This document shows positions 7,307 to 59,640 of a stretch of DNA of 64,000 bases, one piece after another. This DNA comes from Eledone cirrhosa (lineage: Eukaryota): positions 14,508,001 to 14,572,000 of the forward strand of contig OZ024748.1 of assembly GCA_964016885.1 (NCBI GenBank). The letters run 5' to 3'. The position numbers and the translations under genes were made by a program. Below the pieces are notes generated by a model. The model saw only the letters and a program-made list of their open reading frames with translations. It was not told the origin of the DNA and ran no database searches. Positions within the stretch are counted from its first letter, which is position 1. Each line of letters opens with the position of its first letter.

Positions 7307-7969
7307 AATTTTGCTCTGATATTTACATAGAGCACTCTTCATTTCTATGACCTTTTCTGTTTCCAACTGAAATTTCAATACTTATATATATATATATAGA
7401 CATATATATATTGTACACGCACATCCATAGGCCCTGAACTCCTGAGTTGTTGGGGATGTTTTATTGTCATAAAGCATGACTTGAGCCTTTGAAATGTTTT
7501 GGACCTCATCCACTTCCAGGTCTCAACACAACCAATTTCTTCCAAAGAAAGAAAGAACAAGAGGGTGAGAAAGAAAGATGGAAGAAGAATTGACCCCACT
7601 ACTAGACTGGTACTTTGTTTTTCAACCTCAAAAGGATAATAGGCAAAGTTGAACTCAGAATTTGCACTTGGGTCACTGGCAGCTGGAACAAATACCACAA
7701 TGCATTCTATTCAATGTTTTAACGACTCTGTCAATTTGCCACCTGGAGATATTTTAGCAGAGCATAAAATCTAAAGTGAAATATCTGTTGATTGCTACTT
7801 CAGTAGTTTCTTGTAACTCTAAGTTGATTCCTCCCTCAATATTCTTGCTGTTAGTGCTATAAAATTTCCCATTAGATAATAGCTACATCTCTTCACACAC
7901 ATGCATATATACACGTATACATCTAGTGTATTGCAGTTACCATTTTTACTATTATTATTACCCCCTACA

Positions 7970-8184
7970 GGGGTGGTGAATTGGCAGTATAGAGGATGGT
8001 GAATTGGCAGTATCGGTAGAGGGTCGGACGCCATGCTTTGCAGCACAGTTACGTCCCTTTACGGACTCAGTTCAAATCCCGCCGAGGTTAACTTTGCCTT
8101 TCATCCTTACGGGGTCGATAAAATAAAGTACCAGTAATGCACTGGGTAATTGCTGGCCTTGTGTCAAAAGTAGAAACAATTATT
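7970..8184 (+). mobile_element. Short tRNA-headed SINE (GCCTTTCATCCTTACGGGGTCGATAAAATAAAGTACCAG family)
   Basis: Head ggtgaattggcagtatcggtagag, B box agttcaaatcc, conserved central block and ATT tail. Roughly 25 copies in the window. Confidence 0.85.
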
Positions 8185-8468
8185 ACCCTCTATAGGGGAA
8201 TTTTATTGTTGTAATTTTATTGTTAATTTGTTTTTACTCAGTTTTTATTGTAAACCCCCACTCTCCCTGTTTTTTTGTATTCTCCCTATATGTAGGCCCT
8301 AGTGGCCAATAAAGAAATTACTACTACTACTACTACTAATGCCAACTACTAAACAGTTTCATATAACACCACATTCCTTAATCACAGTATTTATTTATTT
8401 ATTTTTGGGGGTGTGTTGATAGAGTTTTATAATTGAAGGAGTTACTAGACATATTATGTAGTTAATAA

Positions 8469-8656
8469 GGGCGGTGAATTGGCAGTATCGGTAGAGGGTT
8501 GGATTATGCTTTCCAGCATAGTTACGTCCCTTTATGATCTGAGTTCAATTCCCGCCGACGTTAACTTTGCCTTTCATCCTTACGGGGTCGATAAAATAAA
8601 GTACCAGTAATGTACTGGGATAATTGCTGGCCTTGTGCCAAAAAGTAGAAACAATT
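8469..8656 (+). mobile_element. SINE, same family as 7970
   Basis: Near-identical to 7995-8184. Confidence 0.85.
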
Positions 8657-10232
8657 CTGTAGTTGATAAATGTATTTCCACATTCCATACCTAATTAGAC
8701 AATAAGTGATGGCACATGGCCTAATGTTTAGAGTGTTGGACTCACAATTATGAGAGGAAAAATTAAATTTACAACTTGAACCTACACAGCTTTAAATGGC
8801 CTTCTATGATGATGGATCTCATAGAAAGTTTCTCAGGTGATTTAATGATAGGGGAGGAACCAGTGTTGTTTTTAAAACTTATATCGATGTAAGTTTAGCT
8901 GGACTCATATGAAGATGTTTTAATGATAGGGCTGCCAGTCTTATGAAAAGCAACAGAAAATGTAGAACATAATGTGCTATATGGTCCAAAAATGAAACTC
9001 ACAGTCATCAGTCAAAAATCCTAACCATTAGGCTAAACTCCTTCGCCAAGATGATAAGGTCAGTGGTTTAATATCTTAACCAGGTAGTGTATTGTATTCT
9101 TAAGCAAGGCTCTTCACTTCACATTGCTTTTCATGATAAGAGTTAGGGCTCTATCATTAAAACACAAAACCTATGAGATGTAATATCATAGAAAAACTGT
9201 AACCACAACTTGAAACAAGACAAGACAACCAAGAAACTTTCTGTGATGCATCCTTTTAAAAGGCCAGTTAAACCTACATAGGTGTGAGCTGTAAATTTCA
9301 TTTTTTTTTTTTGTCTTTCATTTCAATCAGACAGTATGAATCATGTTTGGAACTTAACTTAAGAATGGTTCTTACATAAAATTAGGATGAAAGGATTTTA
9401 TATAAATATAGACAGTTTAAAATATACAGCTTTGTATCATAGAGCCAAGAGTGGTTTCAAGCAGGTTTTGGTGTCAAACATGTTAGTATTAAGAAAGGTT
9501 CTTACATAAAATTATTATGAAAGGGTTTTAAATAAATATAAACATTTAAAAATATACAGCCTTGCATCATAGAACCAAAAGTGGTTTCAAGCATGTTTTG
9601 GTAACAAAGGGATTCATATTGGAACATTACTGAAACTTAAGTCAAACTTTACAGAACACTTTTCCCACAATCATAACTGGGGAAAATAAATAAATATATG
9701 AAAATATAGGAGCCTTTAACAATACAAGACAATCAATATTTCAAATTTTTGTCTCATTGTTTTGCTTAATTTATTTGGTTCCTGTTTTATTTGAAAGTAA
9801 AGTAGTTATTTTAGTTATTTTAAAAGAAGCAGATAAAAAGTGATTGTACTGAAATTTAATTTATGTGATAATAGTAACCTTATTTTCTTGAAAATACTTC
9901 ATTTCATTATTATTATTATTATTTTGTTGTTGTTACTCTGTAACAGTAAATTAAGTGGTTCACATTAAAAGGTTAAAGAAAATAACAAAAATATTAAACA
10001 GGAATGTAACTTTTCAGAAATATATTTCTAAATATTTCAGTTTAGTGATTTTTTTTTTTAAATTTGAAATGGAAACACATTATTATAATTGGGGCTGCTT
10101 GTAAGAAGGTTATAGGTTCAAATCTAGCTGAAGGTAATTCATTATGTTTTTAGAACAATGCACTTAAGTCTACTTGGTTAACACCTAATTAAAAAGTTGT
10201 TGTCATAACTAATGGCTTTTATTATTATAGAA

Positions 10233-57142: not shown

Positions 57143-57490
57143 AGGGCAGTGGGTTGGCAATAACAATAGAACATCAGGCAACATACTTTGCGGCACTTAG
57201 TTATGACCCTTTACATTCTGCTTTCAAATCCTGCCGAGGTTAGCTTTGTCTTTCATCCTCGCGGGGTCGATGAAATAAAGTACAAGTTATATACTGGGGT
57301 CGATTTAATCAACTTCCCCCTCATCCCCAAATTTGTTGACCTTGTGCCTGAATCAGAAACTATTTATTTATTGCTCTTTACTTTCTGAGCTCAAATATTG
57401 CCAAGGTCAACTTTGAGTCAATAAAATAAAGTACCAGTAATGCACCGGGATAATTGCTGGCCTTGTGCCAAAAAGTAGAAACAATTATCG
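57143..57490 (+). mobile_element. Two tandem 7970-family SINEs
   Basis: Central block at about 57250 and 57420. Confidence 0.7.
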
Positions 57491-58774
57491 TTGTTATTAT
57501 TATGATGATTTAGACATTTACTGTGATCTTATGTTGCTTACACTTGATTCATATTCATTGAGTCATCGAAGAAGATATCGTTATTATTATTATTATTTTC
57601 ATTTTATTCTTTTGTAATTTTGATTTTTTAACATCAACCAGATCTTTCTTAGGCTTCTCTCTCCCTCTCTCATTTTATATATATATATATATATATATAT
57701 ATGTAGGAGGTGAGTTTTATTGTAGTACAATAAAGCAATGCAGATATCGGATAAGAAGCACTCTACAGTTTGTAGGACTGGAGTATGTTGATTTAAAACT
57801 GCACTATTCACAAGTGTTTTTTAACCTTCATATCATGTCTTCCTATTTTATCTGATGAAAACACAAATGTTATTGCATGATGATATTTGTTTTTGAAATA
57901 CGCATAATAAAATACATGGAACTCTTTTAACCATCTTTTGATCTTATATATATATATATATATACACATATATATATATATATATATATAATATGCACAT
58001 AACCTATTTGCTATGTGTCTGTAAATGACAAAACCTATACACACACACATACATATATGTATTGTATGTATGCATATGTATTATATGTATGTATGCATAT
58101 GTATGCCACATTTACAATGTGTCTGTAAATGACAAAAGAAATATATATATATATATATGTATATGTGTGTGTGTATGTATATATAACAATGAATATTATT
58201 GTTTACTTGTCTTCTTTCTAAAACATTTTCATGCTACAACACTGCTGAAAATTTCTTCATGAAAATTGAAATTAATTCAATTCAGTCATGTTTAGAGAAG
58301 GCAGAATACATCAGTTGATATTAAAATGCATTAAATGAATTTTACCTGCTGGTGCAAGTTTAGAAAGAAGGCAGTAGTTGAAACCAGCTCTGATTAGGTG
58401 TCTGTTATTGATGATACCCCCCACTGTGTCAATCTGACACAAATCTAAATGTTAATGAGTGCTAATGAGACTATTTTTCTTGTTTTTGAAATAACAAATG
58501 AAATAATTATTAAAATGATTACATTGCAATTTTTTCAACTAAAATAAAATTTCAAGATCAGCATAAACATCTTTAAAAAATCATTTCTTTTAGAATTGTC
58601 TTCATGATTACTTTATCACTTAACCTATTTTCTTACACAGTTATTTGAAAATTAGATTCCTCATTATTATTCTCCTGATCATGTGACCATCAATAATATT
58701 CGAAAGCTGTGAATAAATTTTACATGTTAAAATTATTAAAATGTTTCAAAGAAGGACATGAAATATTTTATACG

Positions 58775-58925
58775 GGTGACTTCTCTCAATTTCCTGCCTA
58801 TAGATGTTATATAAGGTGACATCTCCCAGTCTCCTGCTTATAGATATTATATAACTTCTTCCGACTAACTGCCTATAAGTATTATATAGTCTGACTTCTC
58901 CCACTTTATTGCCTATAAATATTTT
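58775..58925. repeat. About 35-40-bp tandem repeat (4 units)
   Basis: gacttctc....ctgcctatagat.ttatata is repeated. Confidence 0.65.
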
Positions 58926-59436
58926 GTAATGCTGTTACTTCAAATTTCTCCCCTATATTAAATTTCTGATTTAGGCATATCACCAATGAATACAAAAAAA
59001 ACTAGCACAGAAAAAAATGAAAGAATGCAACTGGCACCAGTATTACATCACCAGCAACAAATGAAGTGTGACAAGCAGATAATAATAATAAATAAACGAT
59101 GATGACGACAGTGATGATGATGATGATAAGGATTTCTTTTATAATAATAAAAAAAAAAGATGTAAACATTGTATTTCTTTCTTGGTGCTATACAAATAGA
59201 GAGTCTGGTTGTCAAACTTTTCAGTGTTCAGACAGGCTAGGATATTTTTTTATAATTTATATAAAAGACATAGACATTAGAAATAAAACAAAAAATAGAA
59301 TTACTACTTAAAGTATTTAAGATGACAATATTATAAAAATGTCACCTGAAGTGACGGATGATAAGAAAGAAAGCTGTATATATGTGTATATGTGTCTCTC
59401 TCCCTCTGTGTGTGCTTGTCCATATATATATATACA

Positions 59437-59640
59437 TAGGAACGAGTAGGACCACGACGGCTGAGCTCAAGCCGTTTCGACGGCTAATTCTGGACAGAAT
59501 TAGCCGTCCAGAATTAGCCATCGAAACGGCTTGAGCTCAGCCGTCGGGGTCCTACTCGTTCCTATTACCCACTCTACTACCCTAAGTATTGAGTACTTTG
59601 GTGCGTTATGGTCCACCTGGTTCCTTACCACATTTCCTTC
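59437..59640 (+). mobile_element. Fold-back element with hammerhead 3' half (GAAAC-GGCT..AGCC-GUC) plus unpaired tail
   Basis: Inverted arms 59437-59564, gaaac 59523-59527, gtc 59543-59545. Tail ttacccactctactac...gagtactttggtgcg..tggtccacctggttccttaccaca. In (TA)n. Confidence 0.7.

Follow-up and report, generated by a model that had tools for sequence, protein, structure and literature searches.

A duplicated, covarying stem-loop beside the insertion ends of Hydra-clade Penelope-like elements, traced from hairpin tails in Eledone cirrhosa DNA

Hydra-clade Penelope-like elements with a C-terminal endonuclease, as portrayed in passages of PMC8557442, insert into (TA)n, carry a hammerhead close to the 3' end, and are accompanied by an inverted, 5'-truncated copy and by a tail on one side only. 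For a Penelope-like element of another clade, Poseidon_Ac, two internal start sites of the reverse transcriptase (RT) bracket the tail in vitro, according to sections of PMC11167929. Here we analyze 64,000 nt of Eledone cirrhosa DNA (assembly GCA_964016885.1, contig OZ024748.1, positions 14,508,001 to 14,572,000, forward strand; the whole stretch is called the window), in which 11 insertions, all of them in (TA)n, end in a tail that contains a short motif. As judged against the same passages of PMC8557442, these insertions match the Hydra clade in target, hammerhead, inverted truncated copy and one-sided tail, but differ in lacking an open reading frame (ORF) and in tail length, which by self-comparison of the window is ~55-100 nt on short-spacer hairpins vs 30-40 nt in the published elements. 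The two halves of the motif pair into a single bulged stem-loop, RYYC-N...N'-UH-GRRY-RCU, which in related elements from outside the window is duplicated beside both end sites. This duplicated, covarying structure is real and apparently undescribed: we found no description of it in the literature searched, a scope outside which most subscription papers and Repbase reports fall, and the passages of PMC8557442 examined describe neither the stem-loop nor its duplication nor its tie to the ends.

A bulged stem-loop shared by hairpin tails and Hydra-clade elements

A preliminary description of the window had pointed to two words in the tails of unrelated hairpin families, RCTCT just past the hairpin arm and, further on, the near-palindromic octamer GAGYRCTC, and every octamer that it listed is present. 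The exact octamer occurs eight times in the window, compared with a mean of 1.1 and a maximum of 4 in 200 dinucleotide shuffles, none of which reached eight, and seven of the eight copies (including one at 26631-26638) lie inside the tails of hairpin insertions. Altogether, motif-bearing tails were recognized on 11 insertions (Table 1, E1 to E11), two of which, E10 and E11, had been overlooked. The spread over families stands in so far as the 11 belong to nine families without alignable sequence in common, although the octamers at 30602, 53981 and 59591 (E2, E8 and E9) share a single family. RCTCT likewise holds in general but is not universal, being replaced by ACTCC at 40174, ATTC at 31130 and GCTAT at 53961.

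Both words are real; they are, however, not two signals but the paired sides of one stem-loop. A pairing rule drafted post hoc, with the data already seen, and thus only descriptive, picks out 9 of the 11 tails (the stem-loop of E4 fails its strict form), 54 of 20,000 random positions and none of the 18 ends of nine other hairpins. Further evidence comes from outside the window, where metagenomes were scanned by RT motif alone so as to avoid selection on the tail motif. The scan yielded 121 loci, 80 with flanks, in 70 families at 80% identity. Their ORFs are ~700 aa in length; RW[KR] and DK[TS] are found in 18 of 19 long ORFs, the C-terminal endonuclease motif Y[IV]G in 16 of 19, and the CxCX5C linker is invariant in all 14 aligned. 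The predicted structure of the L001 ORF (predicted local distance difference test, pLDDT, 82) has TERT as its best fold match (E 1.4e-8; template-modelling score, TM, 0.31). Sequence searches of Pfam and PDB with these ORFs gave nothing meaningful, and the RT-motif scan of viral contigs gave 0 matches. These loci are Hydra-clade Penelope-like elements with a telomerase-like RT.

In their untranslated regions (UTRs), 69 of 80 right halves of the motif have an exact complement 4-46 nt upstream, vs 10 of 79 elsewhere. Of 53 distinct pairs, 46 were aligned after five near-duplicates and two doubtful pairs had been dropped. For the next inward pair (+1/-3), which played no part in the selection, Watson-Crick pairing holds in 45 of 46 (C-G 31, U-A 12, A-U 1 and G-C 1), or in 50 of 53 if the dropped pairs are restored; these tallies are to be read as counts rather than probabilities, related families not being independent. 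Pairing in slid controls was 20-54% vs 92%. A 2-nt bulge, always UH (UU, UA or UC), separates this pair from the outer stem, where the outer pair covaries as well: in 20 rows made up of 10 window and 10 outside copies it is G-C in 12 and A-U in 6, two rows being misaligned or atypical. Further compensated outer stems are GCCC/GGGC in E11 and, by eye, GTTC/GAAC in L015 and TCTC/GAGA in L034. Taken singly, the copies have modest folding energies (z -2.9 to +0.7). Near-palindromy, a feature of most window copies, did not survive the comparison: just 23 of 46 outside copies keep the octamer's final C, and therefore conservation does not extend to the palindrome as such. Shuffles, exact-complement counts and pair conservation together rule out chance as the source of the motif. 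The idea that the UH bulge is cut as the substrate of a hammerhead was also rejected, as the insertion ends map elsewhere.

When a covariance model built from outside copies only was run on the window, the first seven of its 22 matches were tails, headed by E1 (E 4e-6), and E10 ranked 11th. The 12th was an octamer without a hairpin, gagtactc at 4127, which the preliminary description had called an orphan; it is present, but as a weak minus-strand copy (E 1.6, folding z +0.69) of uncertain status.

Insertion ends and the origin of the tail

GAGYNCT, counted in 100-nt bins of the outside families, is concentrated upstream of the ORF (two bins, with 19 of 24 families in one and 18 of 28 in the other) and at the 3' end (8 of 21), and is found in at most four families in every other bin. 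The order read in these loci is hammerhead, 44-73 nt, stem 1, ~55-75 nt, stem 2 and ATG. By a strict pattern, 16 of the 23 families with a pre-ORF region have two stems, four have one and three have none, several of the latter two groups being variants or truncations. A third copy, short and degenerate (RCTC...TGAGTAG), lies between hammerhead and stem 1 in L033, L052, L064, L065 and L069, which represent two Hydra families.

To locate the ends, 3' and inverted-arm ends were read against a copy of the same family that runs through both stems, with overlapping TA blurring them by a few nt, and breaks of inter-family alignments 30-50 nt before stem 1 were counted as lost homology, not as ends. 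Of the 12 distinct insertions whose ends could be measured, nine terminate within the 0-6 nt that precede a stem, five at stem 1 (L059, L027, L031, L078 and the inverted piece in L064/L065) and four at stem 2 (L001, L041/L057, L035 and the inverted arm of L060), which bears out the earlier proposal that the motif is positioned relative to insertion ends. In the family of E9, position 59565 is where 3,312 of 22,387 reads and 86 contigs give way to (TA)n, with 5 nt remaining to the stem. Because ends cluster just before stem 1 or stem 2, the tail is, as read from the outside loci, the inter-stem interval, which begins shortly ahead of stem 1 and closes shortly ahead of stem 2. Three 5' junctions (L029, L001 and L007) fall in or just past stem 2. 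At the 3' ends of L064 and L065, the Hydra element stops at a short TA spacer beside an inverted hammerhead piece of a different family, and this foreign piece in turn breaks off 3 nt short of the stem 1 that belongs to it.

The insertions of the window

The window insertions are short, 5'-truncated, inverted Penelope-like copies of the ordinary known kind, and the unpaired tail expected of such ends is seen, together with the inverted copy, in all 11. Since they lack an ORF, their clade has to be taken from the motif: its similarity to the Hydra loci, in comparison with Hydra and Naiad/Chlamys sequences, most likely places them in the Hydra clade and not in Penelope/Neptune. A hammerhead core adjoins the tail in the same sense, in full by pattern in 4 of 11 (E1, E4, E5 and E6) and as its 3' half in three more (E3, E9 and E11), and reads of the E9 family supply the missing half. 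Spacing from hammerhead to stem 1 is 48-74 nt in eight window elements vs 44-73 nt in 20 outside families. Among the matches listed by an Rfam scan (best 150 of 251) there was no hammerhead, only microRNA-like and repeat noise. Miniature inverted-repeat transposable elements and Helentrons were excluded on their family features, as the insertions contain hammerhead cores and are not bounded on both sides by terminal inverted repeats.

Table 1. Motif-bearing insertions of the window and the isolated copy
Element	Positions	Strand	Hairpin and tail	Stem-loop
Orphan	4127..4144	-	no hairpin; relic or chance (model match, folding)	weak copy
E1	7071..7381	+	hairpin 7071-7309, which contains a hammerhead core; tail reaching ~7381; flanked by (TA)n	7313-7337 (GCTC/GAGC)
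E11	15222..15492	+	decayed hairpin 15222-15437, tail	15439-15464 (compensated GCCC/GGGC)
E10	26590..27030	-	hairpin 26736-27030, tail	26631-26659 (ACTC/GAGT)
E6	27506..27681	-	hairpin 27574-27681 with hammerhead core	27544-27567 (ACTC/GAGT)
E2	30451..30652	+	hairpin, tail; family of E8, E9	30582-30609 (ACTC/GAGT)
E3	30667..30916	+	hairpin 30667-30817, hammerhead 3' half	30823-30876, with 42-nt insert
E4	31072..31336	-	hairpin 31141-31336 with hammerhead core	31107-31130 (atypical; ATTC/GAGT, 1-nt bulge)
E5	40090..40547	-	hairpin 40180-40547 with hammerhead core	40150-40174 (ACTC-C/G-TT-GAGT)
E7	52190..52383	+	asymmetric hairpin whose direct arm is shorter than the inverted one, tail	52295-52344 (GCTC/GAGC)
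E8	53884..54040	+	inverted arm, tail; direct arm almost nil	53961-53988 (decayed)
E9	59436..59641	+	young hairpin 59436-59565, tail; very abundant family	59571-59598 (ACTC/GAGT)

Three unrelated elements are crowded into 30451-31336, E2 and E3 having a 13-nt TA run in common and E3 and E4 lying tail to tail. The tail of E10 is split, exactly where the tail stem starts, by an insert at 26664-26732 that we take to be SINE-like (short interspersed element), with a duplication of ~13-14 bp. Directly after E8, at 54100-55340, follow decayed coding fragments, presumably of a non-long-terminal-repeat retrotransposon. A further hairpin family in (TA)n (4364-4507, 26025-26208 and 26136-26554) has a one-sided tail of ~60 nt without the stem-loop; three short words from it matched no Naiad end, and it could perhaps be another Penelope-like clade. 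The palindromes at 5935-6028, 11371-11492 and 62279-62428 are centered on a TA run and have neither tail nor motif.

Initiation of copying and comparison with known systems

Considering where the ends fall, we infer that each stem-loop probably serves as a putative docking site for the element's protein and sets the start of copying a few bases upstream. In such a scheme, reconstructed from sequence, the RT-endonuclease would bind each stem-loop within a tandem RNA and hold the A/U-rich bases immediately 5' of it in the active site, where the nicked (TA)n end would pair over 1-3 nt and prime copying. A start before stem 2 would give a copy whose tail contains stem 1, and a start before stem 1 a tail-less copy or an inverted arm. 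A window element would then be the head-to-head join of one copy from each start, and this joining would explain both the end of the arm immediately ahead of RCTC and the presence of a single stem in the tail. In E7, E8 and several strand-switching joints in reads of the E9 family, the inverted part spans sequence missing from the direct part, as in twin priming. Starts at two stems would fit these joints and the asymmetric E7 and E8, and also, by analogy, the two internal starts of the Poseidon element in vitro. More tentatively, and with the balance leaning somewhat against it, the duplicated stem-loop might be a portable start signal, with each stem occupied by one protomer of a telomerase-like RT dimer, each protomer priming one nicked (TA)n strand, and with stem spacing setting the tail.

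Several observations weigh against these proposals. Three of the 12 ends miss the stems (the direct ends of L064/L065 at -16, L070 likewise at -16 but measured on a diverged reference, and L052 at -86), and several 5' junctions of full-length copies (L059, L002, L050 and L042) are also 3-9 nt short of a stem, which priming alone does not explain. The two-stem order was read in outside loci; window families show one stem, with 59634-59668 skipped as a repeat in the reads, and in some window tails the stem-to-end distance of 81-95 nt exceeds the outside stem spacing. The covariance model misses E3, E4 and E8, the minimum-energy folds of E2 and E9 differ from the proposed stem, and the Hydra-1_Obim consensus, in the part of the PMC8557442 supplement compared, has no clear copy. 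Nor does folding discriminate RNA from complementary DNA (cDNA), the first non-Watson-Crick apposition being of the G-U type in 6 cases vs the A-C type in 3 and the probability of the stem 0.90 in sense RNA vs 0.81 in antisense DNA.

This near-equality, together with the stems that adjoin 5' junctions, speaks for a hairpin in single-stranded cDNA or DNA that is read by the GIY-YIG endonuclease or halts second-strand synthesis, so that ends arise by a cut or stop a few nt away from it, with the inverted arm produced by fold-back copying. The Penelope endonuclease required the tail for DNA cutting in work cited in the sections of PMC11167929 considered, and passages of PMC8557442 attribute the tail to endonuclease resolution. 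We nevertheless regard this explanation as unlikely, because in E7, E8 and the strand-switching joints the inverted part extends beyond the direct part (later deletion within a palindrome could mimic this), and because the borders of the Poseidon tail in vitro are RT starts on RNA (PMC11167929, same sections). Alternatively, the stem-loop may direct RNA cleavage at a site a few nt 5' of itself, the same site yielding template 3' ends and run-off 5' ends. Such cutting would account for the identical offsets of 3' ends and of the 5' junctions of L059, L002, L050 and L042; by eye, two published consensus sequences start 2 and 6 nt before the stem, and the invariable UH of the bulge resembles a hammerhead cleavage site. 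The ends, however, map 5' of the stem, away from the bulge, and the Poseidon element, albeit of another clade, starts internally on uncut RNA (PMC11167929, sections as above), which makes RNA cutting rather improbable. That the motif controls transcription or translation, the ends being near only through an A/T-rich match to the (TA)n target, is suggested by its 5' UTR position, with stem 2 ~20-45 nt before the ATG, and by 76% A+T in the 12 nt preceding the stem; yet the whole UTR is A/T-rich and the ends still fall within 0-6 nt of both stems, and we consider this very doubtful. Finally, a palindromic double-stranded endonuclease site in GAGYRCTC, independent of RCTCT, is scarcely credible and already largely refuted: despite the near-palindromy in the window and apart from the variable last C, changes in GAGY are matched in RCTC across 8-42 nt, and the covarying stem has an asymmetric 2-nt bulge.

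The stem-loop bears on the choice of internal start sites and on the one-sided tail of Penelope-like elements, questions raised in parts of PMC8557442 and PMC11167929. If the duplicated stem-loop is indeed such a portable start signal, internal initiation in these elements would have its first defined cis-signal, tail, inverted arm and matching 5' junctions would be explained jointly, and any RNA could become a template at a chosen internal position. A conserved structure of 25-40 nt with natural compensatory variants offers ready mutants in the retroelements closest to telomerase, and the origin of the tail becomes testable. The motif also allows ORF-less hairpin stubs to be oriented and classified in (TA)n-rich animal genomes.

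Stringent long interspersed element (LINE) proteins such as R2 and L2 recognize 3' stem-loops, a structure upstream of the start. The present elements are similar in that structured RNA near the priming site would select the template, but differ in that the structure is internal, downstream of the end site and present twice. Published Naiad/Chlamys consensus sequences have only scattered interior word matches, none marking ends (matches across line breaks being missed), and have no canonical hammerhead, unlike the window elements with their hammerhead cores. Among the six published Hydra consensus sequences in the consulted part of the PMC8557442 supplement, the stem-loop is readable by eye in four, once as a variant. 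The motif follows the hammerhead in Hydra-2_Amil and Hydra-2_Ajap and occurs twice at the 5' start of Hydra-1_Ajap; Hydra-1_Crog has variants at both ends, and Hydra-1_Amil stops just short of the site where its relative L033 has the motif. Across the whole supplement, four of seven matches to six 9-mers lie in Hydra tails and three within other elements, and four of 13 octamer matches lie in the small Hydra file. Cores like the minimal hammerheads of Penelope-like elements, as outlined in parts of PMC4209133, precede stem 1 by 48-74 nt in the window; the stem-loop is an element separate from these and has no catalytic core. Poseidon_Ac, in the sections of PMC11167929 compared, likewise has two end sites that define the tail, an involvement of stem-loops and an A/T-rich target.

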